Assembly: GCA_951406725.2 (NCBI GenBank) | Contig: OX597830.1 | Coordinates: 45,012,001 to 45,076,000, forward strand | Length of the DNA: 64,000 nucleotides | Origin: Octopus vulgaris | Taxonomy: Eukaryota | Direction: 5' to 3' | Shown here: piece after piece, positions 39,738 through 64,000 of the stretch | How positions within the stretch are numbered: the stretch's first letter is position 1 | Layout: each line of letters opens with the position of its first letter | The notes under the pieces: generated by a model | Told to the model about the DNA's origin: nothing | The model's input: only the letters and a program-made list of their open reading frames with translations | Database searches by the model: none | Made by a program: the position numbers and the translations under genes

Positions 39738-39780
<43 letters not shown>

Positions 39781-42700
39781 AACCCTCAAAGTACATAAAG
39801 GAGAATAAAAGTGAGTGTGAAGACAGAGCAGGAAGAATGGGTGGGTAAAGGTCACATGCATGGAAAGATAGCGAAAGATGGTTGGAGATGGGTGAAGAGA
39901 TGTATGCAGTGAATGTTGGACAAAGATGAAGGGGTGATCAATGGTAAATATGAGTTGGGTGAAGGTGATAATAATGAAGGATGGGATTCAATAGAAATAG
40001 CTCAGTGTGACAGAACAGAAAGGGTTTAAGAGCAGCTAAATAGTAATGAAGCTATGGACAGGGAACGGATGAGAGATGGGGAAGATGCAAGAGTTGAAGA
40101 GTGGGGTGAGAGACATAGGGCTGAGCATGGAGGAGGAGATCAGAAGAAGTATGGAAGTGTAAACATAGCAAATGGTGAACAAAGGTGCAGCAAGGGATAA
40201 ATAACAGATATGAGATGGTGTTAAGAATGAGGTAGAGATATCAATAGTATATAGTTCAGAGAGGAAGTAACTAACTAATGGCAAAGAAAGAATGATCAAT
40301 GGAAGACATGGATGGGGAGAGAGACAATATTAAGACAATGAGGGAGTGACATCAAAAGGAAGTGGTTCCAGAGAAAAGAGATAACTTTTAGTAGAGAAAG
40401 ACATAAGATATTACAGATATATTACAACAGTACAATAATGCAGTAAGCAGAGTGATGGAGGGATGAACTAGGAAAAGTTTCACAAGGACATATTGACAAG
40501 GGGTTCAGTTAGGTGTATACCCATAATGCTTCTAGAACCTCTGTTTGGCCATGATGGACAGATATTCTCATGAAGGTACTGTTGGTCCTTTCACATTGGC
40601 CATTGCCTTGAGGTCGATAGAAAGATGTTCTAGTTTTTATTATCCCATTAACGTGAAAGAAGTCCTGAAATTGGGTTCCTCTGTCAGATTGGATACAACT
40701 TGATGATCCAAACGATGAAAAGAAGTGGAGCAGGTGGGAAATGACTGTTTTGGTACTCATGTCTTTACAAGGGTACCTCAAGTACTCAATGACTACTACC
40801 AATAAGTGGTGGTATTGTGTGATTGATGGCAGGGGACCAACAAAGTCGGAGAGGTGCTCCCAAGGTCTCGATACCTGTATTAATTGACGTCATTTTGCAG
40901 ATTTCATTGAGGGAGAACAGCAAGTTTTGTACTTTGCAGTAGTGAAGTAGATGGGTCACTCCTGGGTGGCATAGTTGTTTGTGAAAGGTTATTAGTGTTG
41001 TAGTGTCTCTTGTTGCTGCACATCTTGATAGCATGTCTGCTGCTTTGTTTTGAGTTCCTGGTCTATAAGAGATTGTGTAATTTGTGTCTGAGAGGTCCAA
41101 GCACCAGCATATAAGTTTTTCATTTTTGATTTTTGAAGTCACTTGCTTATTGAAGATCATTGCCACTGAGCATTGATCAGTGACGATGTTGCAGTTTGAG
41201 AAAACATGTATTAGGTAGCACCATTTGTGGAAATATTCTATGATTGCACAGGCTTCTCTCTTGACAATGGATTGGTGTTTTTCTGATTTTGAAAGTGACC
41301 TTGAATAGAAGGCCACTGGCCTTCCTTGTTGTGATAGCATACATCCCAAGGCTAGGTCAGGAGCATCTGTTTCGATAGGAAGTGGTATTCCAGTGGCATT
41401 TACCAATGCAGTCTTGAAAGATGTGATTGCTGTTTTTGCTTCTTTTGGCAGTCCTGCTTTGTTGATATTCTCTCTGGCTCTTGTAAGTGGAATGGTGAGT
41501 CCGGAACACTTAGGTATCCACTTTGCATAATATGCAAAAATTCCTATTATTCGATTTAATTCTCTCAATATTCTTGGTTCTGACATATCTAGCAGAGCTT
41601 GATACCTTTTAGGGTCAGGTTTTATTGTTGAATTTCCAATAATATGTCCAAGGAAGCTGATTTGCTTCTGAGAGAATTGACTTTTGCTCTTATTGATGGT
41701 CATGCCAGATGCTTCAGTTGCCTGGATAAATCTCCTGAGGTTATCGTCATGTTCATGATGATTTTGCCAGCTATGATGATGTCATCTAGATTGGAAAAGG
41801 CTTTCTGGAGATTGTTTCTTTTTATGAATTCATCCCTGAGACACTGAGAAATTGCTGCGGCATTGGTGCAACCAAATGGGAGGCATTTAAACTCATACAA
41901 TCTCCCCCCTGCTTCGAATGCTGTCAGTTTATAGTCTTTGGGTAGGAGTTCCACCTGGTGATATGCAGCTGTCATATTGATGTTGCTGAAAACCTTGTTT
42001 GCTGCTACTTCATTTAGAAGCTCATTGATCTGTGGGGTAGGGTAGGCATCCAGTTGTGTGTAGATATTTATAGTATTCAAGTGGTTGATCACCAGTCTTT
42101 CCTCTCCATTAGATGTCACAAAGCATTGAGCTCACCAAGGACTACAGCTTTCCTGAATTATGTCCTCTGAAAGTAACTTGTCTATTTTTGTTTAATAAAC
42201 TTTGCGTCTTGAAGTTGTAATTGGTCTGAGCTTAGAGGTCTCAATGCCAGGAAGTAGTTTATATGCAGAACATGTTAGGCTTGACATGGACAGGCAGAAT
42301 GACACAGGTTTGAGTGTGTCCTGAAGTCAATTGCAACTGCTGAGTGTTGACTGAAGATATTGATTCTGATTATGACTGGAGCTACAAGGAAATTAGTGTT
42401 ACATGTGTTATTTCCCAGTTGTAGTTTACTACTGAATTTGCATTTAATCTCCAGTATTGTGTTGTTGGTCAAGTTAACTTTTTCTGGCCAGGTACGATCA
42501 TAGTGTAATCCCCAGACCTCAAGATAATTCGCTTTTATAAATGTCCTGTCGAAAATGGCTTGTATATTGTTGTACTTAATTTCAATGGGTACCAGCCATC
42601 CTGTACTGTTTGTTACTGCTAAAGTGATGGATGATAAGGTCCCACCACTGTCTGAGTCACTCTTGGGCTCTGTGATAGCTGCTGTTTTAGGGAAGTTACA

Positions 42701-45532: not shown

Positions 45533-45541
45533 CTTGGCTAT

Positions 45542-45551
45542 GTCACATGAC
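45542..45551. promoter_or_regulatory. CLEAR/M-box-like E-box (GTCACATGAC) next to the SPG11 start
   Basis: 9/10 match to CLEAR GTCACGTGAC; contains the MiT/TFE core TCATGTGA; 10 nt upstream of the ATG. Confidence 0.5.
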
Positions 45552-45758
45552 TACTGGCAGGGAGCGGTCTGTGGCGGAGAGAGGATTTATATGAGGGAGC
45601 AGTCTGTAATGGTTATTAGATTCAAGAAGCTGTCGTTAACTACAAAAAATAAGTTTTAAAAGTGCCTGTCATACAAACCCACTCACGCACATATACAGTT
45701 GTGTGTGTGTATTCTAAGAATTCTATTGACGCACGAATGGATCTATCTATCTGTCTGT

Positions 45759-45880
45759 CTATGTATGTATGTATGTATGTATGTATGTATGTATGTATGT
45801 ATGTATGTATGTATGTATGTATGTATGTATGTATGTTTGTATGTATGTATGTATGTATGTATGTATGTATGTATGTATGT
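45759..45880 (+). repeat. (TATG)n microsatellite upstream of SPG11
   Basis: About 30 TATG units, followed by an RTE tail remnant at 45881-46040. Confidence 0.95.
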
Positions 45881-46334
45881 CATCATCATCATCCTCATCA
45901 CCATATAACGTCTATTTTCCATACTAGCATGAATTTGACGGGTTGACAGGAGTTGGCGTGCCAGAGGACTGCAACAAATTCAGTTGTCTGTTTTGGCATG
46001 GTTCCTAAGGATGTATGCCCTTCATAACGCCAACCACTTTAGAAAGTGTTCCTGGTACCCCTCAATCAAGTGAGAAGCTCTATTCAGGTAGGTAACTTTG
46101 TGCCAGTTGGTGAGAGTTTAGAGTATGACCGAGGGACAGAAACAACTGCCTTGCTATAGAGGTTTTTCTGTTGGGAATGGGAGAGAGACAGATAGACAGT
46201 CAGAGAAGATAGTGGTGAAGATGTGTTGTGACATACCCACAAGGTACAAGGGGGCGAATATAAGTGAAGTGCTACAGAGGACTGGACAGGGTGAGTGTGC
46301 AGGAAGTTCCTGGGCAGTTTTATCACCAAATAAA

Positions 46335-48838
46335 TAATGTAGAAGAAACTATTGAAGATGAGAAGCCGAATGCAAAAGAAGCTAGAAAGTTCTGGAGTTA
46401 CAGTTGGAAAAAGCTAGTTGATTATACTGGTTACAGAAAGTAAGGGAAGAAGCAGTTAGTGAGAAGCAGTCAGATCTAAAACTAACTAGTGCAAATGCCA
46501 AATTGGAAGGATCTGGGATCAGATTTAGTTCAAGAGTACTGGTTAAAGAAATTTAGTAGTTTACATGGGAGGCTGCAGGAACAACTTCAGGATTGCTGAA
46601 AGGAAGAGTAGAGAGAAAACAGTTCTCCTTGTGGAAGATGAAAGCAAGGGCAATATAGCTAGTAATTATAGTAGATCAATCACTTGCTTACTATTCTGTG
46701 GAAACTATTCACAGTAATGCTCTCTGAAAGCATTTATGAGCACTGTGACAGCCAGGGTTTATTTTGAGAAGAATGGAAAAGTTGCAGGAAGAAGGCTAGA
46801 AGAATGTATGATCTACTACACATAGACAAAGCAGTCCTAAAGAAGTGAAATTTAGAAAGAAAAATTTAATAATAGCATGGATAGATTATAAGGAAGTCTA
46901 AACCTAATCCCACACTCATGGTTAAGCAAATGTTTGAGAATATTCAGAATAGCAGACAACATAAGTGAATTAATTAGCGATAGCATGAAGAAATGGAAAG
47001 CAGATCTCTACTCAAGCGATACAGCCTTAGGGAAAGTGAATATCAAGAGAAGAATTTTCCAAGGAGACTCATTATTCTCTTGAATATTTATGTTATGTTT
47101 ATTTTTATTCCCCCACAGTTTAGTATTAAGAAAGGCAAAGGAGGCAGGATATCAGTTTAAAGGAAAAATCAACAATTTGCTCTACATTGATTATCTGAAA
47201 CGTTTTAGTAAGAATATTAAAAAAAAACAGATAGATTTTTTGATACAAACTGCAAGGCTCTTCTGCAAATATATAGGTATGGAATTTGGCAGAGATAAGT
47301 GCACAGTAATACTCATAAGAAAAGGACAGGTAGTCAGTAGTGAAGGCATTCAATTACCAGATGGCCAGACATTAAAATCACTGAAAGGAGAAAGTTATAA
47401 GTATCTTTTAATATTAGAAACTGTCAGAGTACTAACTGTAGAAATGAATGTAGAAATTGAGGAGTACATTAGGTGGGTGAAGAAGTTAATAAAGTCGTAG
47501 CTGAATGGTCTGAATCTAACGAAGGTTGTAAACATCTGGGTACTATCGTTATTTAGATATTCAGCAGCTTTTCTGAATTAGCAAATCTAGACAGAAGGAC
47601 CAGATAGGAATTCAATATGAATAGAGGATTTCATCCAAGAGCAGGAGTAACAAGACTATATTTACATAGAAAAGCAGGTCTTACAGGTTTAATATCAGTA
47701 GAAGACTGTGTGGAGTTAGCTAGAGTAAATATATCATCCTATGTATGTAATAGTGAGGAAATTTTATTAAGAGCTGCTAGAGTAACAGTAGGAGATAGGG
47801 AAACCCAAAAGCCAAATGAGATTAAGAAACAGAAAAAAGAAGTAAGATTATCTGGTAGGAAAGAGATGGTTTTATATGACAGATTTCCAAAGAGAGTGGC
47901 AGAAAATAGTAATAGTGAGACATGGTTGTGGTTGCAGAAAGGATGGCTGAAAAGGCAGACAAAAAGTTCGTTAGTGGTAGCATAAAATCAAGCATTGAGG
48001 ACTAATTGGATAAAGTTGAAATAGACAAAAATTAGGTAGAGTTTCAATGTTGTTTGTTCGTTCCTTCTTAAGCCATGCCTAGCTCATAAGGGCCAGTTTC
48101 CTGATTTCATTAGCATATAGGTTCCCCACCTGGGCAGGATGCAGGTGAGCTGCTAGATGCAGGAGGAGAGAGTGAGAGAAACTTGTGGCAAAAGAGTTAG
48201 CAGAAGTTTACCATTACCTTCTGCTGGAGCTGTGTGGAGCTTAGGTAGTTCACTCATAAGCACACACACGGCCCGGTCTGAAATTCGAACCCGTGATCAC
48301 TCGACCATGAGTCCACTGCTCTAACCACTAGGCCATGTAGGTAATGTAAATCAAAAGAGGAGTGTTACTCATATAAGTTAGTAAATGTATTATGTAGGCA
48401 CAGAAAGAATACAAAAGACATGACAATCCAGGGGGAATAATCCATTGTGAATTATGTAGAAAACTAGTATTTCATCATGTTAAGTGATATGAACATGACC
48501 CTATTAGTGTTAGAAAATAAGAAATATAAGATGTGGAATTTTAACATTCAAACTGACAGAGTAATAAAAGCTAGAAGGTCTGATTTAGTAGCAGTAGACA
48601 AAGAAAATAGAAAGCACCAGGTAAATGGCTTTACAGTCCCAAATGATAAGAAAGTCAATATGAGAGTTATAGAGAAAATAGTATCAAAACCTAGCCATTG
48701 AATGACAGAAGTTATGGAAAGCGTAGGTAAAAATGTATCCCTGTAGTTATAGGTGCATTAGGAACTGTCCCTATATATTTGAACAGATTGATAGAAGAAA
48801 TAGTAGTTTTTGCTTAGTAGTAGTAGTAGTAGTAGTAG
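46335..48838 (+). mobile_element. Decayed R4/Dong-like non-LTR retrotransposon (RT plus restriction-like endonuclease)
   Basis: NLIIAWIDY..IPHSWL, RRIFQGDSL, INNLLYIDYLK, RLYLHRKAG..GL, QTDRVIKARRSDLVAVDK (RPD-type RLE) and VVIGALG; followed by (TAG)n. Confidence 0.82.
48055..48337 (-). mobile_element. tRNA-derived SINE inserted in the R4/Dong element
   Basis: Minus strand atggcctagtggttagagcagtggactcatggtcgagtgatcacgggttcgaatttcagaccggg. Confidence 0.75.
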
Positions 48839-49059
48839 GCATCTGTCAGTTTCGTGAGACTATGGATCTGGCCCTGAAGAAATTGTGTCAGCTGCTGACA
48901 CATGCTTTGTATGTCTATTATTTTCATATGACATTTTTTTGTTTGAATGAGAAAAAAGAAAAAGAGATTCTCATTAGTTTTGTGATGAAGTGAAGTTTTT
49001 CTCAATTTCAAAGCAGTGAGTTTAACTCAGTTTTTGTGTTTAAGTGCTTATTGTTTAAG

Positions 49060-51050
49060 ATTAACAATGTATGCAGACAGGGAAAGCCCCCAGCCCATCA
49101 GGAATCACTGCTGAGATGCTTAAAATATCAGGTGGTGTGGGTTATGGTCTAGCCATTTGTATGGTTAATCAGGTTGTACACGAGGGAGTCATACCCAATA
49201 ACTGGTGTAGCAGCACCATAGTCAACAGCTACAAAAGTAAAGGTGATGCCTTTAACAGAAATAATTAGAGAGGTAGCAAACTGTTGGAGAAGGTGATGAA
49301 AGTTACAGAGTGGTTCATGGCTCAACTAATTAGGAAGAGACATGGAGAAAACCTTTGACAGGGACCCAGCTCCCTTATTTAGTAGTCAATGTGGAAGCTA
49401 GTAATAGATGGGTGGTTGGTAAGAGCTGTCCAGGCCTTGTACCAGGATGCTGTCAGTAAGGTGAGGATTGGCAACAAGTATAGCAATGAATTCAGTGTAC
49501 AGGTAGGAGTTCACCAAGGATAGGTTTTCAGTCCCCTCTTGTTCATCACAGTCCTCCAGGCTATAACAGAGGTATTTAAGGCAGGCTGTCCTTGGGAATT
49601 CCTCAATACTGATGACCAGCTGAATCACTACTAGAACTAGAGAAGAAATTTCAGATGTAGAGGCCAGGTCTGGAGTCAGAGGACCTTAGAGTCAATTTGG
49701 CAAAGACCAAAGTCTCAGTAAGTAGGAAAACAGACAAATCACAAATCCTTTCAGGGAGATGGCCCTGTCTGATATGTAGAAAATTTGTTCAGATTCCGTT
49801 TAAAGATTATGGGATCCTTTTCCTCTTTGATCTGTTTCGGGACAACGTTAAATAATGCCTGTTGAGGAAAATAAATTCTGTTGCAGTGTATTTATGCGTT
49901 GTGATCCTGAATTGGGTAGGGGGATGTATGGCCTGTGGTCCTAGCCTTGGATGAATCTTGAAGCTAATGTTGAGGTCAGTTGGGCAATGCTGGCGTTACA
50001 TTCTCCACATCGTGCAAATGATGTACCCCTCGCGGCGGCGCAGGAGAGAGTAGAGTTTTTAAGTTTTAAGACAGTCCCAGTAATCGAGATCAGTCATGCC
50101 CTTAACTCGTTTAGTGAATGCCCTATGGTGTGATTCAATTTTCGAGATGTTTTGTTTTGTATGGGGAGACCACAGGAGGCAGCAGTATTCGAGGTGTGGC
50201 TGTGCAAAGGAGGAGAAAAGTAGTATGATGACACCTTGTTCTCTGGACCAGAAGGTTCTTAAGATCCAGAAGCTCATCCTACGAGCTATATCGGCCTTAT
50301 TTTTGATGTGGGACTCCGACTGAGATTGCTCTCAGCAATTACTCCTAGGTCTCTGATATTATTAGATGCTGGGAGTGGTTGCCCTGAAGGAAGACAGTAT
50401 GGCTCTTTTAGCATAGCCTTTTTCCAAAATGCATCAAATTTTCCATCGTTTAGTTGCATTTTGTTTTTGTCTGCCCATTGACACACCATATGTCAATTAG
50501 ACTGGAGTTGAGTTCGGTTTTCTTCTTCATTGATAATTTTCTGAAGCTTAGAGTCATAAGCAAATATTTTCATTTTGCGGTGTTTTATGATGCTGGAAAG
50601 GTCATTTATATGGATTATAAAGAGGAGCAGGCCCAATACAGTCCCCTGAGGGACACCACAGGTGACTTTTGCAAATAGGTACAATACATGCTAGAAATGT
50701 ACAGAAAATAGATGCCATCATATACCAGGGATAATACAGAGAAATAGTTGATAACTTCCATTACTTAGGTGACCAAGTCAGCATTGGAGGTAGGTGCTCT
50801 GAGAGCATAGCTGCTAGAATAAGAATAGGCTGGGCAAAGTTCAGAAAGCTTCTATCTTTGTTGGTAAGAAAAGGGCTTCTCCCTCAGAGTGAAATCCAGA
50901 CTGCATGATGCCTCTGTGCAAACAGCCATGCTACATGGCAGTGAAACACAGGCTGCGACTGCAAGGGATATGTGAAAGTATGAAAGAAATGAAATTAGCA
51001 TGCTGCACTGAATGTGCAATGTCAGTGTGCACATATGACAATGTGTAAAT
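49060..51050 (+). mobile_element. Decayed RTE LINE interrupted by a CR1-like fragment
   Basis: MQTGKAPSPSGITAEMLK..GVHQG..SPLLF (49071-49785), resuming with FHYLGDQV..RIRIGWAKFRKL (about 50750-51050). Confidence 0.8.
49790..50670 (-). mobile_element. CR1/L2-group LINE RT fragment
   Basis: VTCGVPQGTVLGLLLFIIHINDL..FAYDSKL, IRDLGVI, PHLEYCCLLWSPH. Confidence 0.8.
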
Positions 51051-51052
51051 GC

Positions 51053-51225
51053 TCTGAGTTCAAATTCCGCTGAGGTCAACTTTGCCTTTCATCCTTTCGG
51101 GGGTCGATAAATTAAGTACCAGTTACACACTGGGGTCGATGTAATCGACTTAATCCTTTTCTCTGTCCTTGTTTGTCCCCTCTATGTTTAGCCCCTTGTG
51201 GGCAATAAAAAAATAAGAAATAAGA
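51053..51225 (+). mobile_element. 5'-truncated Meta-domain-like SINE
   Basis: Matches 56767-56926 (gcctttcatcctttcggggtcgataaattaagtacc core and tail). Confidence 0.82.
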
Positions 51226-51327
51226 AACGTGAAAAACAGATGGTAAATGATAAAGAAGAAGAAGGAGGAGGAGGAGGAGGAGATGATGATGATACCTGCC
51301 ACTTTACCTTATGCTTCAGGATAAAGT

Positions 51328-51718
51328 AGTGGAGGCGCAATGGCCCAGTGGTTAGGGCAGCGGACTCGCGGTCGTAGGATCGCGGTTTCGATTCCCAGAC
51401 CGGGCATTGTGAGTGTTTATTGAGCGAAAACACTTAAAGCTTCACAAGGCTCCTGCAGGGGGTGGTGGTGAACCCTGCTGTACTCTTTCACCACAACTTT
51501 CTCTCACTCTTTCTTCCTGTTTCTCTTGTACCTGTATTTCAAAGGGCCAGCCTTGTCACACTCTGTGTCACACTGAATCTCCCCGAGAACTACGCTAAGG
51601 GGACACGTTTTTGTGGAATGCTCAGCCACTTGCACGTTAATTCCACGAGCAAGCTGTTCCGTTGATGGTATCAGCTGGGACTCTCATCGTCATAACCGAC
51701 GGAGTGCTCCTAAAAATA
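51328..51718 (+). mobile_element. Full-length tRNA-derived SINE with 10-bp TSD
   Basis: tRNA-like head with A/B boxes; TSD AGGATAAAGT at 51318-51327 and 51719-51728. Confidence 0.88.
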
Positions 51719-52484
51719 AGGATAAAGTGCATTTCACTGTTATTTATCTCCATTTTGGTAAGATTAAATGCTATTGTTCATGTAATAGAAATACAATGAA
51801 ACAATTGTTTGTTTACACCTCTTCCTACTTTGATTTTTATACTTTGTGTGTTTCTGGAGCTGTTCACCTTTAGATTTTAGAATATTTTAGTCAAGAACAG
51901 CAATTTTAAACTGTTTACGATCCATAGCACATTAGAATAAAACACAATGGGTTATGATACATCATCATTTTTATAAATTATATTAGTGTGTGTCTGAGAG
52001 AGAGAGAGAGAGAGAGAGTGCGTGCATGCGTGTATGTGAGTGTATCTTAACAAAACAAGCATTAAAATTGGTTTGAAACTCAAGACAAGCAGTGCACTTC
52101 ACTAATAAAGGATAAACATGTACCAGGGCAAGGTGCTAAAATCACTCAAATTTTCTAATTAACCTTCTATAATGCGACTCGCTTCAAAAGAACATACATT
52201 GTACACAAGTGTGCCATTGCATGCATCTACTTTATAAAGAGGAAATTTCTTCCCCGGGGATTTTAATGTGAGTTAGGGTTAGTAACTCTTTAGATGATAT
52301 TCTGAGTTATTTCCCTTGAAAGCTAATCTCTTGATTATTTCGTTTAATTTCTAATTTTAATTTTATACTTCTACCTTCTGAAATTAAAACCTAGAACCAT
52401 CATGTGCATGTCGGCTCCAGTAACTTTATTTGTAGTCCACTTCTTGATCAGTTGACTTTATTTTGAACTTCATTCATGTTTAAC

Positions 52485-52660
52485 GCCTTACTTCCCTGGG
52501 CATGGACACATTGAAACTCCGACGTCTGGCAGCTGGCTTGGCAGACACCCATAAAATTATCAACCATCGTACAAACAATAACTCTGAGCACTCCACCCAT
52601 CTAACACCCGTGGACATATTTACAAAGTAAGAAAATAGCACAGCTCCCATGACTTCAGGA
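52485..52660 (+). mobile_element. CR1-like 3' fragment
   Basis: LTSLGMDTLKLRRLAAGLADTHKIIN..NTRGHIYKVRK. Confidence 0.75.
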
Positions 52661-55478
52661 TTTCTTTATTGCCCGCACAGAAGGAGCCAACAGAGAAGGG
52701 ACAAACACAAGACATGTGGGGTCATATATATATAAATATTTATTCTAATTTAAATTAATTCTATGTAATTATGCAGCTGAGGATTGCTCTGCATTTAAAT
52801 TGATGTAATGGTTGCATTGTTCAATTAAATGGAGTTGCATGAAATGATCGTACTGCATTACAATAAAAAAAAAATGAATGCGGGGTCAGTGTAACGAATG
52901 TGATCACACAAAAATGAAGTTAAAAATCTGTGAATATAATCAATGAAAGGACAGACAATAAAAGAGTATAATGGAATGGAGAGACGGTTACCACCCCGCA
53001 AGACACGTTCCTCCACTGATCCTTTTTATAAACATTTCATGGATGCACTCACGTCGGACCTTTCATTCCCAACATGCGAACCACTTGCATCCATCTTTTA
53101 TCGTACATGTCCGATGACAGTTACTTCCTTTCTAGCCTTATCTTCCTTCTACGAAGGAAGATACAAAAAGTTGACCAAACCTAGGCCAGAAAAGAAAGTA
53201 CCTGTCACCAATCCTTTCGTCCTTGCTTTCCATATCGCCTCCTTCTCTATAGCGACCACAATAAGGAAACAAACCTAACCTTCTCTGTTCAATGAGGGAG
53301 GTGGAACAATTTTTATAACAGATTCGGACGACAGCTTTTCTCTTCCAAGCCGTGACAGCAGTCGTTCGACGTAAACCCACGAAATCGTCGCACACTGCCA
53401 AATTACGAGCGGAACAGTTTCATTGTCCAGTCCACATTTTGGGCAGGTGGGTGAGCACGATGCACCATGCCTTGAGAGCTTATCGTAAATTGGTAAGGCT
53501 CCTCGGTAACATTGCCAGGTGAGGGGCCTCTGGAAGTTGTCCAGAGGTCCCGGCCCGATCGTCCTTTGAAACAGGCTGCCCAGGATTTCCCCCAACGCTT
53601 CATCACACTTGGCCTCTACTAACCCTCTATAGAACGACGAGGTGGAACTACGCTATTAGAATTGCACATGCGACAGAAGAGTGCGAGTACCTTGTGACAC
53701 TCGGTCTGCCAAGCACCCAACTTTTGTCTACGTTTGATCTATGGTTCTAGCTCACCAAAACTAGTGAACCTATGAAGCAACAGTTTGACGAACGGAGACC
53801 ACCCCCTTTCACCATCCAGGTAAAGCCAAAGATGCCTTAGTCTCAGCGTGCGCTTGTGCATCCTCAGCCACGATATCCCTAGCCCATCCTTAAGCGGTTG
53901 TTGGCAAGAGATAGAGCGCCTTACAAGAGGTCCGCTGCCCTCCCACAAAAAGCAGAAGGATAATCGTTCCATCTTGCTTAGCCACGAATCGGGGCAAGGC
54001 ACGATGGTCAGACGGTAGGTGACCACAGATGCGATAAACGCATTTGCAACCTCCGCCCTTCCTTTCAGGGATAGCCATCGTCCAGACCAGGTCTGGGTTA
54101 GATGGGCCACCCTGCTCGTAACCTCGCTCCAAATTTTCTCTAACTGGAGGTCTGGCCCGAACCAGATCCCGAGCATTTCACTTTGTTAGACGGCATCGAC
54201 TTGCCTCTCCAGGTACCGAGCTGTAAGCCGACCGAATTTTCTCGGTTGATTTTTGCTACTGCCACCGCCTCGTATTCTTTAACGGCTTCACCTACCCACT
54301 GTAGGTGTCTCGCCTCAGATACGATGATGGTGATGTCAGCTGCGTAAGCCGATACTGATCTTCCACTACCTAGATCTCGCGGGACGCCACTCATACCCTC
54401 AGACTTTTGCAGTAAAGGCTCAAGAGCCAGCATATATAGCAGAAGGGAGAGCGGACATCATTGACAAACTGAGCGCTTGATAGAGAACGGCTCCGAAAAG
54501 AAACCGTTCACCTGAACGATCGAGTCGATGTTGCTGTATAAGGATATGATTCAACCGCGAAAGATTGGGCCCAGCCCAACTGCCGCGAGGACCGTCACCA
54601 GATACCGATGGTCCACCCTATAGAAAGCTTTAGCCTGGCCTAAATGTACCTGCGCCCCGCCCTTGCCAGATACCTTATTAACCCGCTCTAAAGTATAGCG
54701 TATAAGATGGAGATTGTTGTGTATGAACCGGCCTAGGACGGCACAGGTTTGTGCCTCCCCAACCAGTCCACCCACAACCTGCGCCAATCTTTTTGCGAGT
54801 ACCTTGGCCAAAATCTTCAGCTCTGCAGTAAGCAGAGTGATGGACCGACAATTATCTATAATGTCCCCCTTTTTTGGGTCCTTTCTAAGCAGTGTCACAA
54901 CTCCCCGACTCTCAGATCTGGGAATGAACCCATTCTGTTACCAGCTTGTAAAAACACATGCCAGTAAGTGTCCAAACAAGTCTGACATACCGTAATAAAC
55001 TTCGTAGGAAAGACCATCTAGTCCCGGCGACCTGTCCCCACGGCGATCCGACAAGACGTCCTCTACTTCCGCAACTGTGATCGGTCTTTCACAGCATTCC
55101 GCTTCCTGTCCCGAGAGACGCGGCAAACCGTTGAGGAAGTCCGTAGGGTTTACCTTGCGCTCCGGTTCATCGCCCCTCCCGAAAAGCCGGCTGAAATACT
55201 CGTAAAAACCTTACACGATTGTTTGTCATAGATCTTATTCTGGCATCGTTGCCATGTTGGGCTTCTGTCACACGGGCCTATCTCACAGTGTTGATCCCTT
55301 CTCGATCCCTTGTACGAACCTTAGCCCTCGTGCTTAGCTTCGAGGTGTTGGTTGAGCGCCAATCTCGCGGCCGACACTTGGGGTGCACTGCCACTCTCCA
55401 ATGCCTCTTCTAGGGCCTTAACTGAGTAGATCCTTCTTAGCTACTAATTCCTTGCTAAATCTAATTGACTCAATTTTG
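52661..55478 (-). mobile_element. 5'-truncated Tx1-clade (L1 group) LINE: ORF2 RT, zf-RVT and 3' UTR
   Basis: RSPGLDGLSYEVY, RSITLLTAELKILAKVLAKRL, GQAKAFYRVDHRYL, SAYAADITI, LSLKGRAEVAN and CPKC..ET; AATAAA tail at about 52665. Confidence 0.9.
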
Positions 55479-56088
55479 AAGAAACAGCGACACTAACCAA
55501 AATGGAGGAAGAGAAAGACAGAGAGAAGGCTCCAAGAGAGGAACAAGGGAAAGGCAAACAAGAGAGAAGGCCGAGAAAGTACAGATGAAATTTCGTTACA
55601 TATGCTAAGAGCACAGCAACTGAAAGAATGATAACGAAGTTTAAAACCGTTATATGGGTTAAGTTGCCTACAGATACGTACAGAGAAAATGTGGAAGCCA
55701 TTGTAATTGATAAAGACAGATACAACAGGTTGAAGGAAATGTGTAACATTGGTCTGCCGGGATTTGCAGTGGAGTTTGACGTACTGTCGCCAATAGTGGA
55801 ATTAAGAGAACTAGAACCATTCAGAAGATATTAAAAAAAAGTAAAATTGTTCTAAAACATAGAAAGAGAGAACGGAACGATGCTAGAGGAGAAAGGACAA
55901 GAAAAAGAGAGATTGTAAACTACAAGTAAAAACGTTCAAATGGTACTGCATGAGAGTGGGGCTCATGCAGTCATTTCATTTTTCATTCGTTTTGTTTTTG
56001 TCCCCACTGAGGTGTTCTGTTTATCTTTGTGCTGTTACCTCTGTGTTTGACCCTTGTGGTCGTAATAAAAATAAAAAATTAAAAAATT
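55479..56088 (+). mobile_element. 5'-truncated ORF1-only (HAL1-like) element
   Basis: FVTYAKSTATERMITKFKTVIWVKLP..IDKDRYNRLKE is homologous to the C-terminus of the 56112-58436 ORF. Stop at 55834, then about 230 nt of UTR, AATAAA at 56064 and an A-rich tail. Confidence 0.75.
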
Positions 56089-56445
56089 ATATAATGTTAA
56101 GTTAAACATGCTTCTTTATTTTGGCACTACAGGGGGGACCGCACAAGGACAGTCAGAACACCAAAGTGGGGACAAAAAACATAAAACGAATGAACATGAA
56201 AAAAATGTATAGTGAAATCGATGATGATGGAATGACTGCATTGAACCCCACTTTCAAGCAGTACCATTTAACTGCTAATTTAGACAATTATTGAAAACTT
56301 TTCTTTTTATCTTTTTGCATATTTTTTCCCCATTTTTTACAAAGTCTGTTTCCTTCTTTTTTTCCTTTCTCTTTTCTTTTTTTAATTTTTTTCCTTTCTA
56401 AAGGATTCCCTTATTACCAGTCATTAAAGTTAACGCCTCGTTTTA

Positions 56446-56676
56446 GGCGACGAGCTGGCAGAATCGTTAGCACGCCGGTCGGAATGCTTAGCGGTATTTC
56501 GGCTGCCGCTATGTTTTGAGTTCAAATTCCGCCGAGGTCGACTTTACCTTTCATCCCTTCGAGATCGATAAATTAAGTACCAGTTACGCACTGGGGTCGA
56601 TATAATCGACTTAATCCGTTTGTCTGTCCTTGTTTGTCCTCTCTATGTTTAGCTCCTTGTGGATAGTAAAGAAATA
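56446..56676 (+). mobile_element. Meta-domain-like SINE, copy 1 of tandem pair
   Basis: GGCGACGAGCTGGCAGAA head, GAGTTCAAATTCC B-box and cctttcatcccttcgagatcgataaattaagtacc core. Confidence 0.85.
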
Positions 56677-56696
56677 GGTATTAAACTCCTCGTTAA

Positions 56697-56926
56697 GGCG
56701 GCGAGCTGGCAGAAACATTAGCACGCCGGGCGAAATGCGTAGCCGTATTTCGTCTGCCGCTACGTTCTGAGTTCAAATTCCGCCGAGGTCGACTTTGCCT
56801 TTCATCTTTTCGGGGTCGATAAATTAAGTACCAGTTACGCACTGGGGTCGATGTAATCGACTTAATCCGTTTGTCTGTCCTTGTTTGTCCCCTCTATGTT
56901 TAGCCCCTTGTGGGTAATAAAGAAAC
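56697..56926 (+). mobile_element. Meta-domain-like SINE, copy 2 of tandem pair
   Basis: Same family as copy 1; flanked by gtatta(a)actcctcgt duplications. Confidence 0.85.
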
Positions 56927-58440
56927 GAGTATTAACTCCTCGTATTCAACTACTTTTGGTAGTCCCTCAAATTCAATTTCTTCCCCATAAGTGTTCACAT
57001 CTTCTCCAAATAGTTCTTGCAACCTTCTGTACCTTTCTTTATCAATCATCATACCCTTGGTGTGTTCCGGGCAACTCTCTACTGGGATTTTAATTCTTAT
57101 AGTACCTTTGAATTTCGTTATTTTCCGCTCTATGATGGTACTTTTCACATATGTGACCACATGCCACTTTTTCTTATTCGCATGTATTTGTTTATGCTCC
57201 GGAACTGGGCTGTCCATGCTATTCGTTTCCCTTAGTTCCTCCATCTGTACACAACCATAATCGTCCACTCTATGTTGTGATACTACTGCTGCTATATCTG
57301 ACCAGTTCCTCTGTACCTCCTCTATTTTCTCCTCTACTTCCTTCATTCGTTTTTGGTTCTCTGTCGGAGAGCTCACCCGCCATTTCCTCTTTCGCCTATT
57401 TACGACCGTAAACGTCTCCTCTTTGTTTTCCTTATTTCTGGCCCCTCCTCTTCGGCGGGCTGTTCTTCGCGTTGTTGTTCCTCTACTGAACTTTCCTGCT
57501 GGGGGCACCTTGCTCTCAGGTGCCCTTTTTGTCTACATAGATAACATGTTGGAGGTCTTCCCTCCACCACCACTATTAGCGTGGTAAAAGAATATCTTCT
57601 TCTGGTAGAAGAATCTCTTCTCCAATTCCGCGTAGTTCTTTTAACCCAACTTGAATCGCCATCTCTAGGCCGTAGCCCCACAATTAACTTTCTTCGTTCT
57701 AGTTACTTTTAGGATCTTTGCATCTTCCTCCATTCCATGCATGACTGCTGCCACCAGCCATGTGTCTCTTCAATCTCGAAGGGCACTCTGCCGACTCTCA
57801 CTCTGGCAACACGTTTGTCACAATACATCGGCAGCAGCATCCACTCTTGTGTCCTTATCGGCTCAATGGAGTGGTTAATAGCGTCCTCCTCGCTGAAGAA
57901 TCTAATCTCCACTGTGCCGTGTATAGAAGGTGGTTAGTCTTTTCCCGTCTCCTAAACACTCCTCTATTGCCTCTATTGGGGCAATCTCTATTTTTTGGTA
58001 GCGGTTGATAACGTCCTGTACACAACCGTTCTTCTTGCTACATTCTTCGTCACTTCTGGTGGGGTCAGCTTTAAGCTGGCCCCTTCCTTTTGTAACAATT
58101 CATTTCCTTCTTTCCATTTTTTCTCCTCTATTTCTATTTCGCAAACTTCAAGGGTGTTGGCCGTAATACCTTGTGTAGTTGCGGCTGCATAGCTTGTACC
58201 ACGCTCCATTTCTCCTCTTCTCACTACTTCACCCATAACTGGGGAAGAAACAACTTCCGAAACAGGCAAAACAACGACAGAAATTCAACAATTTAACAAT
58301 TTAACGAATCTTGGTTAACCCGCACGGGGAGACCTACAACAATATATAATAATAGTGTGTAACAATAACAGTGTGTAACAATTTTAACTCACGTTTAAAG
58401 AAACCAACACCCCAAAATTGCGATCCGACAATGTTATAAT

Positions 58441-61400
58441 TTTTTATTTCCCAGAAGGGAGCAGCAAATCTGATATGGGGTCAAATTAACGAATGATTTT
58501 ACACAATTATGAATTTTAAAATTTACAAGAATGTTAATAGTTCGAATGATAAGACATACTGAAAGACATTACAGATGGAGTGAGGAGGCGGGTTAAATTC
58601 GGACCCCATGAGACCCGCCTCACCACTGATGTCTGAGACTCATTCTGCGTCGCATTCATGACGCAACATTCGTGCAACATTCTTCCATCGATTGTTGAAC
58701 ATTTTCGCAGACATGCATTTTCTGTCTAGACTTATTTTCCTTTTCAAGTGAAAGGCGAAGAAATTCACCAAATCAGGGCCAGAGATGAAGATGCCTGCCT
58801 TTAACCCTTTCACTCTCGTCTTCCAAATCACCTCTCTCACAATTGTTACTACGACGAGAAAACAATTCTTACCTTCTTTCGATAGGAAATCCGGCGGGTC
58901 AATTTTTACTATTGACTCAGTCGATAGCTGTACTCTTCCTGTACTTGACAACAGTTGTTCAGCATAAATCCACACGTCTGACACATCCGAACACTGAACA
59001 ACAGCGTGTAGGACGGTTTCCCTATCCCGCTCACATCTTGGACAGGTCGGTGGGTCAGGGCCACCATGCCTTGTGAGCTTGTCCCAAACAGGTAAGGCTC
59101 CCCAGTAACACTGCCATGCCACAGACTTGAGAAAGTTGTCCAGGGTCTTCGGCCCGAATGTAAGTTGGAACAGACTGGCCAGCTGATTATCATCGAGACC
59201 TAGGGCTTCCCCTAAGGTATCGTCACATTCCGCCTCTACCAACCCTCTATAAAAGAATGCGGTAGAGCCACTTCCACAGGCAATGCCTGAGTGACGGAAT
59301 AGCAGGAGAGCCTAGCGACATTCCGTAGACCATGTACCCAACTTTAATCTACGATAGAACCAGGTTTCCCGTCTATCGAATCTTTTGAACCTGAGAAAAA
59401 TCCGTTTCGCCAGCGGGGACTACACCCGTTCACCATCTAGATAGAACCACAGATGTATCAACCTCAGCGCATGTCTGCACATCATTAGCAAAGGCATCCC
59501 TAGCCCACCCTTTAACGGTTGTTGGCAGCAAATAGAGCGTCTCACAAGTGGTCTCGAGCTCTTCCACAAGAAGTGGAAGAGCTTCCTCCCCAGCTTGATC
59601 AACCACGAATCAGGGAAAGGAACGACGGTTAGGCGGTAGGTGATGACCGATGCGATGAACACATTGGTCACCTCCGCTCTCCCTTTCAGGGATAGCCACC
59701 ACCAAGACAAGGTTTGACTGTGTGGGCTACCCTGCTCGATACCTCGGCCAAATTCTTCTCTATTTGGAGGTTTGGCCCAAACCAGACTCTTAGCAACTTA
59801 ATCGGACCCTCTGTCCAACGTCCCTCGATGCTGTCAGGAGGCATCGACTTACCTCTCCAGGTGCCGAGCTGCAAGCTAACTGACTTTTCACGATTAATCT
59901 TTGCTCCTGCCACCGTCTCATATTTCTCAATGGCTTTGCCTACCCTCTGTGTGTGATCCATTTCAGTTACGATGATGGTGATGTCATCTGCGTACGCTAA
60001 AACCGACTTTTCACAACCTGGATGTCTCGGGATGCCGCTCAATTTTTGCAGCAATGGCTCAAGAGCCATCACATACAAAAGCAGAAGAGCGGACACCCAT
60101 GACGAACCGAGCTTAGATAAAAAGCCGTTCACCCGAATTACCGAGTCCATGTTGTCATAAATTTCAAGAAACCACCTGAGGGAGCCAAAACCCAGGCCGA
60201 ACGGTGCCAAAACAGACACCAGGTAATTATGGTCAGCCCTATGAAAAGCCTTTGATTGGTCTAAATGGACCACTACTCTTCCCTTGTCAGAATCGTTATT
60301 AAACTCCTCTACAGTGTACCATAGAAGATGGAGATTATCCTGAATGGTTCTGCCGGGAATGACACATGTCTATGCCTCCCCGATCAAACCATCCGCGATA
60401 CACGCCAATCTTTTCGATAACATTTTGGCCAAAATCTTCAACTCTGCGTTTAGCAGCGTGATGAGCCGAACATTGTTAATGGAATCCCCCTTGTCCGGGT
60501 CCTTTCTGACGGCATCACCACTCCCCGGCGCACAGATCTAGGAATAAAACCATTCTGCTGCTAGTTCGCGTAGATATTCGCCAGCAGGGGCCCGAACAAG
60601 TCTGGCATACTCTTATACAGCTCATAGGGTAGACCATCCAGTCCCGGCACCTTACCCGCTCCGCAGTCTGCCATAGCCTCAATTACCTTTACTACACTCT
60701 GCATCCCACCCCGAGATGCGCGGCAGCCCGGCGAGGAAGTCCGTTAGGTCCCTCCTACCATCCGATCCGCCGACCCCCGAAAAGCTGGGCGAAGTGCTCC
60801 TGAAAGGCCTCACATATCTCCTCGGGTTCGTTTATCAACTTACCTCGCTGGTTCGTCAAAGACCGAATTGTGCCATCGTTACCACGTCGGGATTCCCCCA
60901 CTCGGGCCCAGCCTGCGACTTGATTCCTTTACAACCCACTGCATGAAGCATAGCCCTGGCAATGCAACCCATATGTTGGGGATCGAGGTGCTGGTTTAAC
61001 GCCAGTCTCTTGGTCGTCACCTGAGCCGCAGAACCAGTTTCCATTGCTTCCTCTAAGTCCTTAGCTAATGCTAATACCCTCCTAGTTTCTCAAGTCGCTA
61101 AACCTATGCTATATCTAATAGACTCAAATTTAATGTTTCGCTTGAGGGCATACCACCATTTGTTATTAATAACGGATCCGGTTAATATCCTCTGAATCAA
61201 TAACTTAATCCGGTCTGTGTACTCCTTAATCGCTAAAAGAGACGTATTAAGTTTCCAGTAGCCGGACCCTCTATTATATAGCTTATCTATGTCGAGCTTA
61301 CAGGTGACCATATTGTGATCACTGTAGTTGACCGGGTAAAACTATGGCCACTTAGCTATATTTCTATCTGCTTTTCTAATTAATACTCTATCTAGGTACG

Positions 61401-63993
61401 ACCTGGAAGATCCGTCGCTGCTTGACCATGTTCACAATGGAGCGTTCGGAAATTCCAACCTATATGTATCTGCTAGCTCAAAGCGACTCAGCAGATCCTG
61501 GAAGCAAGGAACACTTTTTCTATCAGAACGCGAGCCAACATAATCTACGCGTGCTACGCAGATTGTGTTATAGTCTCCTAGCACAACTAGAGAATGTGAT
61601 GTACCAAGAAACTTCTCCAGGTTCCGAAAATACTCACTTTGCCCTTTTCTTGTGGGTGTATAAATTGCAACCAGTCTGATAATCTTACCACGGCTGAGCG
61701 TCAAGTCCATGACGACCAGCCTACCTTCTGGGTCTGAAACAAATTAACTTTTTCTCAGAAACCCGGTTTTTTTTACAGGACCAACACCCCGCTCCCGCCT
61801 ATAGGACAGCCCGGAGAGGAAAAACTCTTGTAACCATCTAAAAGCGGGAGCAGTTCTCTTGGCCCCGTTAACTGGGTTTCCGTAGCAACAATAACATCCA
61901 AATTGTGCGACCTGATGTCATTAAGGAAGCGACTTTGCTTCCAGCTTGACACCAGGCTATGCACATTTATACAACCTACGTGAATGCTAACCATTACTTA
62001 CTTCATTCTCCTCTTTTTCCTTTTCTCGGGCTCGTGGGATATTTTGACATAGGCCCTCGTACATGGACTTGCTGAAGTCCAGCCTTGGAGGGTCCATGTC
62101 TGTGGAGTGGTAAGCCTTCAACATTTGAAGGTTACGCGAGTCAATAGTATAAATTGCAATACATTCCGGAAGCTTTACATAATGTTTTTTGTATTTCTCC
62201 GCTGTCGGAATGGTTTTAAGTCGTGTCGTTAATTTTTAATTTTTTGCGTTAATCGCCACTAAGTAAAGTTTGTTTTATAATAATAATAATTGTGTACAGT
62301 GCTCAGGTGCACTACAACTCATCTAAAGTGTATATATAATCAGGTGTAGTTTCGGCGGATTTCGGAAAGCATGAGGGCCTTAAAAGATGCAGTGTCATGG
62401 CAGTCAACAACTGACGCAGGCAGTTTATTCCATGCTTCAGCAACTCTGAGCGTGAAAAAATGTTTCCGAAAGTCATGGGAGCTGTATTGTTTTCTGACTT
62501 TGTAGGCATGTCCACGTGTGTTAGACACATGGAGATCAAAAAGGTGTTCAGTGTTGTTGTTGGTGAGGTGGTTGATAACTTTGTGGGTGATAACTTTTCT
62601 GTCGCCATGTTTTGGGACTCTTTCTTAGGACTAGAAGGGAGGGATGATTTTCTGGGGCTGGGAGGAGGGGATATCCGGGGGCTGGAGCGGGGATATCAGT
62701 GCTGAAAGGAGGGGATATCATCATTTTTTAGGTGAGTAGTGGATAGAAGGGGCAGTCTGTACTCCGTGTGTGTCTGCGTAGGGGAATTTTTTTGTTTGTG
62801 CTGAGAGTTGAGGGGATGGGATTGGGATTCTTTCTTTTTGGGACCTTTCTACTTTTTACAACTGACCATTCGTATGCTGTTCCCTCACTCCTGGCTGGTT
62901 GAATATTTTCACTTCTGGGAGTTTTGTGAGTTGACCTCCTGCCTCTCTGCCTTTTCTGTATTATTTTTTGTTGTCGTCTCCACCTTACGGGTAGGGCAAT
63001 TTGCCCGAATGTGGCCCTTTTCCACACACTCGTAGCAACGGGGTCTTCTCCCCTCTACCATTACCCGCATGATGGTTTCTTCTCCCAAGTAAATGTTCTT
63101 CGCAATCTCTTGCAGCGTTTGTGGGGGCCACTTGAATAATTACTTCTAGGCCCTGTCCCTTCCAGTTTTGCTGGTTGATCTTCGAGGCCTCCAGCACAAT
63201 AATTTTGTCTTCAAGCCCCATTATAAGGGCTGCCTATAACCAGGTAATATCTATTTCTGGCGGGATCTCGTCGACTGTTATGCGTGACGTGTGTCTGCTT
63301 AAATAAGTTGGCAGCAACACGATATCTGCTGTTTTTAATGGTTTTACTGAATGTATCCTTGCTTTCTCTTCGCTTTTGAAGTAGACCACAATGGTCGCGA
63401 ATCTTTTTCCCCTGGTCAGATTGGTTGGAAGCATTTCTCCAGATCCTCTTTTGACGCCTTACCGACTTTTTCCCTTTATAGTAAGGCTTTTAAACACTAT
63501 AATTTTTTTTGCAGTGTTTTCAATAATTTCACAAGGGAGGGTGTCTTTTGCATCATTTCCCTCCCCGGCAAAAATATTTTGGTGTTGCATTAGCGCTTCA
63601 GGTTCAATATTTAGCCTTTCTTTCTGAATGCCAGCCGCCGCTGCAAAATTAATTTTCTTAGGTTGTGCCATCAACTCTTCTGTCGTAGGCGCTTAAGATT
63701 TTCGAACTTTCAGATTCTTCAGCTTTCTTCCCGACACTGGGCATTTTTCTGCACTTTTCCATTTTATCCTCTTCAGAGGAAGTATTCATATTTTTTTGGG
63801 GAAAAAAAGAAACCAGATAATTAGTTAATTCTCCCCTCACAGAGTGGAATCAAGTCCACTACGTCTGCGAAACGCAGAACGTAATTGATATAAGAGAACA
63901 ACACAAGAAGAAAAGAGCTCAACAGTACCAGTAACGACAGCAGTTTCACCAAGCACACCAACAAAAATTCAATAATGCGATCCGGCAATATTA
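58441..63993 (-). mobile_element. Near full-length decayed Tx1-clade LINE (ORF1 CCHC; ORF2 APE-RT-zf)
   Basis: ORF1 about 63840-62000 (FAAAA, VMVEGRRPRCYECVEKGHIRANCP). ORF2 61994-58640 (GCINVHSL..ATET, VLGDYN, SRYLDRVL, DHNMV, GYWKLN, DQSKAF, AYADDITI, CPRC..ETVLHAVVQC). Tail aaataaaaa at 58441. Confidence 0.92.
62278..62600 (-). mobile_element. CR1-like 3' end inserted into Tx1 ORF1
   Basis: SNTRGHAYKVRKQYSSHDFRKHFFTLRVAEAWNKLP; gtgcacctgagcactgtacacaattattatt tail, the same as 19296-19345. Confidence 0.85.
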
Positions 63994-64000
63994 AAGTTAA

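Follow-up and report, generated by a model that had tools for sequence, protein, structure and literature searches.

A candidate 3' pseudoknot and a shared terminal tail in L1/Tx1-group retroelements of Octopus vulgaris

Background

Animal elements of the L1 group are the textbook 'relaxed' long interspersed nuclear elements (LINEs), which read poly(A). Whether such elements can instead carry a structured, covarying 3' module is the question raised by a 64,000-nt stretch of the Octopus vulgaris genome (assembly GCA_951406725.2, contig OX597830.1, positions 45,012,001 to 45,076,000, forward strand), referred to below as the window. It contains four L1/Tx1-related retroelements: E1 and E2, which carry only the first open reading frame (ORF1), and the LINEs E3 and E4. 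An earlier note, based on the letters alone, described downstream of the last stop codon of each a hairpin (here S1) with a GGGG word in its loop, complementary to a CCCC word 30-110 nt further 3', and interpreted the arrangement as a covarying pseudoknot of the 3' untranslated region (UTR) that would serve either RNA recognition or RNA stability.

The stems, loop words and partners of all four elements lie where they had been placed and on the same strands (Table 1), and the measured loop-to-partner spacers of 30, 63, 90 and 102 nt fall within the proposed range. A conserved, co-changing pairing of the loop with a downstream word (helix S2) is supported in this L1/Tx1-group lineage by blind, swap and alignment tests; GGGG/CCCC is not its conserved feature, as one lineage has U/A-rich words in their place. 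The earlier reading overlooked a terminal tail of ~45 nt, which is common to the LINEs, the ORF1-only families and an abundant short interspersed nuclear element (SINE).

Common 3' anatomy

Since the window copies are decayed (E3 lacks the tail, and the tails of E4 and E2 contain deletions), testing was moved to relatives. The octopus's own 2.8-Gb genome (227 contigs) was searched, and ~350 loci chosen around these families were collected. In every family the order is the same: stop codon, S1, a U-rich spacer (~30-190 nt), the partner, 9-24 nt, a pyrimidine-rich hinge (UGUCCCCUCU-like), a terminal hairpin of 3-4 bp and an AAUAAA/A-rich end. As read from the alignments, the partner-to-hinge distance stays at 9-24 nt while spacer length varies about sixfold; the distance from the stop codon to S1 ranges from tens to hundreds of nucleotides.

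In eight families the loop is complementary to the word just before the shared tail. The loop/partner words are AGUGGGG/CCCCACU in E1 and E2, AGCGGGA/UCCCGC in G10, UGCGGGGUC/GACCCCGCA in E3 and GUGGGGUC/GACCCCAC in young E4 (AUGGGGUC/GACCCCAU in the window copy). The corresponding words are AGGGUUUU/AAAACCCU in F5, GUAG-GCUUUUCUUU/AAAGAAAAGCUCUAC in F6 and GUAGGUUUUUCUUU/AAAGAAAAA(A)UUCUAC in F7 and F9, the modal words of F7 being taken by reading the alignment; GCGGGGUC/GACCCCGC and GCUUUUCUUU/AAAGAAAAGC are among the listed co-changing pairs. Young families with an intact ORF2 keep the pairing, with the modal form present in 26 of 29 F5 copies and 21 of 23 F6 copies. Family G10, recovered by a protein query alone with the RNA disregarded, has a different stem, and its loop and partner are compensated. 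The four window copies had been presented as otherwise divergent; they are all present but do not constitute four independent cases, E1 and E2 being sister ORF1-only families with identical loop and partner and E3 and E4 sister LINE families. Six E3 relatives in which the pairing has decayed have at least 2 kb in common, spanning the 3' end; they were apparently carried along within a larger unit, which counts as a single event.

Two further words recur in the spacers. CAU(U/A/C)CG is found once or twice in the G-rich lineage (E1-E4 families) and is absent from F5-F9 and the SINE. In the U-rich lineage a CGAUC-N6-GAUCG hairpin recurs, sometimes twice, between S1 and the partner (L264, L291-L350, L401-L430).

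Evidence for the loop-partner pairing

The loop-partner pairing is very probably real and under selection. In the blind test, the strongest local hairpin was picked blind and the UTR downstream of it was given 1000 dinucleotide shuffles, with p<=0.05 counted as a pass. The loop-partner duplex reaches p = 0.016 in E1, 0.029 in E2, 0.048 in E3 and 0.025 in E4; these single values are modest because G4/C4 words are common, and the combined value for E1, E3 and E4 (p = 0.0014) overstates independence owing to their relatedness. Among representatives of the families, 8/11 passed at first, and with G10 (a pass, p = 0.036) and a second F7 copy (no pass) the total is 9/13. As a control, 4 of the 54 testable random window segments pass (70 drawn), and in two of the 54 the passing partner lies 40-80 nt before the end. 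None of the 13 testable distant L1/Tx1 UTRs passes (18 tested out of 80 loci, five of these 18 having too little sequence 3' of the hairpin, and the closer 36-44% group, P0003-P0031, standing outside this control). Fisher's test gives 9e-6 against the random segments and 5e-4 against the distant UTRs. A general Tx1/L1 feature was rejected on the latter count. In the swap test of six loops against six partner windows, the true matching ranks first of 720 in both representative sets.

The alignments were made structure-blind, from 35 of 41 pattern-selected rows plus four G10 rows for the ORF1-only elements (39 rows) and from 28 of 34 selected rows plus the two window copies for E3+E4 (30 rows). 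In the ORF1-only alignment 92.1% of cells are paired, against 87.2+/-0.5 in shuffled and 37-48% in slid versions, and the covariation score is 0.239 against 0.150 (0/500 shuffles). In the E3+E4 alignment 95.4% are paired against 89.4+/-0.8 (0/500 shuffles). S2 contains U-A to C-G and G-C to A-U changes in the ORF1-only set, and one pair that is U-A in 19 rows and C-G in seven in E3+E4. The G-C to A-U swap formerly pointed out in the E2 stem does occur, in only 1/39 aligned rows (columns 19/29); the better-supported S1 swap is at the next pair (A-U in 19 rows, G-C in 12). As in an H-type pseudoknot, the loop is complementary to a downstream word and covariation is seen in both helices, with few independent events.

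Several observations count against so favorable a view of the pairing. Four of the 13 representatives fail the blind test (F5, L051 and two F7 copies), and in the swap test the E1, F5 and F9 loops pair equally well or better with another family's partner. Pairs with two-sided changes do not exceed shuffles, in either the ORF1-only (9 vs 6.5, reached by 51/500) or the E3+E4 alignment (4 vs 3.3, reached by 153/500), and one or two family-level events account for most two-sided cells. The pair-count tool itself warns that relatedness of the sequences can suffice to beat shuffles, and an intact S1 is favored in the alignments because rows were picked by stem-word patterns. The minimum-energy fold of E2 has a long-range helix in place of the hairpin, so a two-state switch is possible. 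Taken individually, the S1 hairpins of E1 (z -4.0) and E4 (z -3.0) are more stable than shuffles, and those of E2 (z -1.4) and E3 (z -0.8) are not. Judged from the sequences, the actual support is a handful of family-level events, chiefly the replacement of G/C-rich by U/A-rich words in loop and partner alike.

Ribozymes (HDV-like, twister, pistol or hammerhead) and known RNA families were rejected as identities of the structure, as Rfam searches at E<=1 of window positions 50000-64000 and four loci returned only microRNA-family noise.

The shared terminal tail

The SINE is of the tRNA type, ~250 bp long and abundant, and ends in the same ~45-nt tail of hinge, small hairpin and AAUAAA. As read from the alignments, its tail is identical to that of young E4 at 33/36 nt and to that of E1 at 45/59 columns. 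In the E3+E4 alignment the tail hairpin is 95% paired, and one of its pairs is C-G in 13 rows and G-C in seven, which amounts to one family-level event. Known families or the SINE account for 345/360 tail hits. In an unrelated sequencing run, read depth is 38,000-49,000 over the tail and <=2,200 elsewhere along the LINE; the loose ends match the SINE.

As a rule, a SINE has the same tail as the LINE responsible for its copying (PMC3747384, PMC4824008; these and the papers cited below are drawn on for part of their text), so the tail is a likely signal for the ORF2 protein (ORF2p). As the SINE carries the tail without the pseudoknot, the tail is a better candidate than the pseudoknot for the ORF2p recognition site. 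In the SINE itself the blind test finds no loop-partner pairing (p = 0.38); its predicted fold is a three-way junction closing shortly before the hinge. A GGGGUC/GACCCC pseudoknot proposed for the SINE was rejected, GACCCC being located downstream of GGGGTC in 0/56 copies. The absence of the pseudoknot from so abundant a SINE speaks against a direct role in copying: the pseudoknot would not be needed for mobilization in trans, if these LINEs mobilize the SINE, although the partner of the SINE may be another LINE, of a different clade, with the same tail.

Possible roles of the pseudoknot

The fixed partner-to-hinge distance and the precedent of A-clade R2 suggest a scaffold role. In A-clade R2 the protein binds a pseudoknot-hinge-stem unit, and compensatory mutants restore activity and insertion (PMC12180492). 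In the octopus elements the co-change of loop and partner makes a long-range pseudoknot likely, in which S1 and S2 would form together. This pseudoknot would steady and present the tail, and, by analogy with UnaL2/ZfL2 and R2, the ORF2 reverse transcriptase would recognize the tail and start copying there. It would be read by shape rather than by sequence. We regard such a scaffold as the leading reading, with the arguments for and against it about evenly balanced. The protein-coding members would need the pseudoknot and the SINE would not; the three-way junction predicted for the SINE reaches roughly the same point. The two non-autonomous classes kept different parts, the tail being present in the SINE and the ORF1-only elements and the pseudoknot in protein-coding members only. 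The full picture, in which an L1/Tx1-group reverse transcriptase selects its template via a long-range 3'-UTR pseudoknot, with a telomerase-like triple helix in one lineage, and the same LINEs drive the abundant octopus SINE through the tail, is rather unlikely to hold in all its parts. If it did, an animal SINE would have its tail from the L1/Tx1 group, and the 2013 list of SINE/LINE pairs contains no such case.

The possible triple helix concerns only the U-rich lineage. The loops of F5, F6, F7 and F9 contain a further pyrimidine tract, mirrored in order, on the 5' side of the strand that pairs, and its U-run equals the A-run of the partner in length (4/4 in F5, 4/4 in F6, 5/5 in F7 and 6/6 in F9). 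One position differs between F6 and F9 in each of the three strands, being C/G/C in the former and U/A/U in the latter. Parallel matches number 7/8, 8/8, 7/9 and 4/5, against 6, 6, 6 and 4 antiparallel ones (parallel >= antiparallel in all four families). U.A-U and C.G-C triples may be modeled in the major groove of S2, in a telomerase-like manner, which is a lead only. The register is not significant by itself, as reordered tracts do as well in 7/56, 4/8, 48/72 and 3/5 cases, and the third strand is absent from E1-E4. In telomerase and MALAT1/ENE RNAs, two mirror-order pyrimidine tracts likewise face one A-rich tract (PMC7583470); unlike the internal loop there, the octopus loop is terminal, and the triples are predicted, with weak register statistics, in F5, F6, F7 and F9 and not in E1-E4. 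The arrangement is not of the ENE/MALAT1 type, since the loop is terminal, the A-tract internal, and no such Rfam hit was obtained.

A serious, though less probable, alternative is that the pseudoknot acts independently of ORF2p, as an RNA-stability, 3'-end or export element of RNA polymerase II mRNAs, with the tail alone as the copying signal. In favor of this, every protein-coding family examined has the pseudoknot and the SINE lacks it. The U-rich loop together with a genomically encoded, G/C-interrupted A-rich tract resembles the MALAT1-type element, the equal U- and A-runs of F5, F6, F9 and F7 point the same way, and transposons of plants and fungi are known to contain triple-helix stability elements (PMC7583470). 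The G-rich lineage, including all four window elements, however lacks a third strand, and in ENEs an internal U-rich loop captures an A-tract at the RNA end, whereas in the octopus elements the loop is terminal and the RNA continues for 40-60 nt beyond the partner; the weakness of the register test bears on this explanation as well.

It is improbable that S1 and S2 are alternative folds of a switch, or that E4 forms a loop-loop kiss, instead of both helices coexisting in an H-type pseudoknot. Such a view would accommodate the nested long-range helix in the minimum-energy fold of E2, the 7-nt loops that are fully paired unless the top pair of S1 opens, and the weak hairpin that encloses the E4 partner and competes with S2 for two bases. 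Both helices are, however, kept and compensated together, and the partner hairpin is absent from E3 and the ORF1-only families. Moreover, an S2 of 6-7 bp with a crossing loop of 1-2 nt is ordinary pseudoknot geometry.

An effect on translation of the last ORF, through termination, readthrough or escape from nonsense-mediated decay, is highly improbable: the structure does lie 3' of the last stop codon in both kinds of coding element, LINE and ORF1-only, and the non-coding SINE lacks it, but the stop-to-hairpin distance varies widely, which makes a readthrough pseudoknot unlikely, while the partner-to-tail distance is nearly fixed. Least probable, and largely refuted, is that low-complexity G/C or U/A words are complementary by chance and descend, free of selection, from a single ancestor. 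The modest single p-values (0.016-0.048), the relatedness of the families and several TGTCCC-like words in the tail could be cited for this view; against it stand the first rank in the swap test, the two-sided G/C-rich to U/A-rich switch, the blindly found G10 and the control counts of 4/54 and 0/13.

Comparison with known systems

The 3' end of A-clade (avian and testudine) R2 resembles the octopus scaffold candidate in order, with a pseudoknot, a short hinge and a terminal stem, and its structure likewise outlasts sequence divergence (PMC12180492). R2, however, belongs to the RLE-endonuclease clade, and its compact ~65-nt module is bound by N-terminal zinc fingers (same source), whereas the octopus elements encode APE-RT-zf-RVT and have a 30-190-nt spacer inside the pseudoknot; the likeness is one of layout, known here from sequence. 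L2-clade UnaL2 and ZfL2-1/2 have a small terminal stem-loop in the 3' tail shared by LINE and SINE (PMC4176376, PMC3747384), but represent a different clade, and a pseudoknot is not mentioned in the accessible text of PMC3747384. Both a tail shared with non-autonomous partners and a conserved terminal stem-loop with a compensatory change, which are features of stringent-type LINEs, are found in the octopus elements. The module would act in the manner of the stringent 3' modules known from L2 and R2, but is outside any listed RNA family.

The view in the earlier note that L1-group elements depend on poly(A) is too strong if taken as exclusive, as stringent L1-clade cases exist in maize/sorghum and Chlamydomonas; these are the only L1-clade partners in the 2013 table of SINE/LINE pairs, which contains none in animals (PMC3747384, the part available). 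The Tx1-clade LINEs Kibi, Koshi, Keno and Tx1-Mar share with the octopus elements an APE+RT+zf-RVT ORF2, a zinc-knuckle ORF1 and family-specific targets, including microsatellites and other repeats, but the accessible text on them describes no 3' structure (PMC4494074). HAL1, HeT-A and Ag-Sponge also combine a single ORF1-like gene with a LINE-type 3' end and no ORF2 (accessible part of PMC5786205), whereas the octopus ORF1-only elements have in addition a C-terminal domain of ~85 aa and their own version of the pseudoknot. No published account of such a 3' pseudoknot in Tx1-group LINEs was found; Repbase reports, Ohshima and Okada 1994 on octopus SINEs and the supplements of octopus repeat papers may describe the families or the SINE. 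The structure is relevant to the question of an ancestral stringent recognition in the L1 group and to tools for RNA-templated gene insertion, where the analogous R2 module is essential.

Element families and their coding content

Assignment to the L1/Tx1 group is based on sequence features, namely an ORF2 with APE, RT and a zinc motif and a CCHC ORF1. An intact 1132-aa ORF2 relative matches Exo_endo_phos (APE), RVT_1 and zf-RVT, and the same domain search returned no match to an RNase H domain. ORF2 identity between autonomous families is 52-76%, and the two LINE lineages, E3/E4 and F5/F6/F9, are 52-62% identical in the C-terminal part of ORF2 (better-preserved copies); F7 is placed with the latter by its UTR. 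The nearest named protein to the family ORF2 is from Argonauta hians (58%). In a FastTree phylogeny of the C-terminal part, the lineage stands apart from a U2-inserted metagenomic element, with weak deep support and a tree that holds no named Tx1/Keno/Kibi/Koshi reference. This element (L159, a metagenome contig), which we take to be Keno-like, is of L1/Tx1 type and is followed by an apparent U2 small nuclear RNA sequence. A 2.8-Gb Octopus vulgaris assembly has been reported to contain 13 recently active 'L1-Tx1' families (accessible part of PMC13282606).

Young families contain many intact ORF2 frames (1132, 1145 and 1149 aa), and these natural copies make template selection in a target-preferring APE-type LINE directly testable. 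F5 is located before (ATT)n in 27/29 copies (some of them array copies), F6 before TCTA-type repeats in 20/21 and F9 in 25/27. An E4 subfamily occupies one site inside the SINE that shares its tail in 6/30 loci (L005, L008, L009, L014, L020 and L029). Young full-length LINEs with intact ORF2 also occur in head-to-tail arrays (L151-L152 at G000:C30:10436000-10455999; G000:C50, C47 and C22), with periods of ~5276 bp at 99.7% identity and, on C50, of ~5870 bp with at least nine consecutive ORF2 matches; the junctions are at varying points of the following copy's 5' UTR. A same-strand related element follows 12/30 ORF1-only copies and 7/30 E3 copies (L091-L120 and L031-L060, respectively), the E4-to-E2 junction at ~58430 in the window being an example.

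Relatives of E1 and E2 are ORF2-less: the E2 C-terminal domain is directly upstream of the UTR in 47/60 loci, and ORF2 pieces occur in 3/60, none adjoining. Surviving open frames of the ORF1-only elements comprise 394 and 396 aa. The N-terminal half of their protein is homologous to autonomous ORF1 (30-43%); zf-CCHC is matched at the cut-off in the ORF1 of L381, and protein-atlas neighbors are ZCCHC3-like. The ~85-aa C-terminal domain (window 55574-55822 and 56933-57220; also L381 and L382) has no Pfam match, is absent from the two autonomous ORF1s compared, and has at least 150 matches in the genome. One more family is represented at L400:1456-1605 (-) by a copy truncated at its 5' end, which has another word in the partner position and a target-site duplication and lies inside an ORF1-like gene.

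Elements of the window

The features of the window are listed in Table 1. At ~55480 E3 and E1 meet back to back by their truncated 5' ends; at ~56085-56114 E1 and E2 meet by their 3' ends, in tail-to-tail orientation. For the fifth 3' end, a single further copy was found, likewise truncated.

Table 1. Retroelement features of the window (positions are those of the 64,000-nt stretch)
Feature	Position	Strand	Basis and remarks
E3, 5'-truncated broken L1/Tx1-group LINE	52860..55480	-	tblastn with intact ORF2 and alignment with relatives; ORF2 remnant 53052-55422; terminal tail missing
E3 hairpin S1	52972..53018	-	Outer AGUGG/CCAUU, inner GGAAC arm; loop word UGCGGGGU at 52993-53000
E3 partner GACCCCGCA, 3' strand of helix S2	52879..52887	-	Blind test p = 0.048; relative L052 p = 0.001
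E1, 5'-truncated copy of ORF1-only element	55480..56085	+	~600 bp; remaining coding part is the C-terminal extra domain only (55574-55822)
E1 hairpin S1	55938..55976	+	Loop AGUGGGG at 55955-55961; stability z -4.0
E1 partner CCCCACU	56002..56008	+	Blind test and ORF1-only alignment
E1 shared tail	56033..56069	+	Pyrimidine hinge, small hairpin (56049-56061), AAUAAA
E2, broken ORF1-only element	56114..58430	-	Zinc-knuckle ORF1 and extra C-terminal domain; interrupted by two SINE copies
E2 hairpin S1	56229..56269	-	Loop AGUGGGG at 56246-56252
E2 partner CCCCACU	56165..56171	-	Blind test
Two head-to-tail ~250-bp SINE copies inside E2	56430..56943	+	A/B-box-like words (label read by eye); tail of second copy, 56886-56922, matches LINE tail
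E4, near full-length broken L1/Tx1-group LINE	58440..63900	-	ORF1 remnant 62978-63458; ORF2 58655-61985; 5' end approximate
E4 hairpin S1	58577..58628	-	Loop word AUGGGGUC at 58602-58609; stability z -3.0
E4 partner GACCCCAU (58475-58482)	58469..58485	-	Inside weak hairpin (UCUGA/UCAGA in relatives)
E4 terminal hairpin UCCC-UUCU-GGGA and A-rich end	58440..58460	-	Hinge deleted in window copy
Fifth, 5'-truncated 3' end	52664..52723	-	Partner-type word GACCCCAC and variant tail; no hairpin left

Two fragments of another LINE's C-terminal region, presumably CR1/L2-like, are located at ~62290-62560 and ~52480-52660, one of them within E4 between ORF1 and ORF2. Further upstream, the region 40786-41781 (-) encodes reverse transcriptase and RNase H-like domains of the long terminal repeat (LTR)-retrotransposon type.

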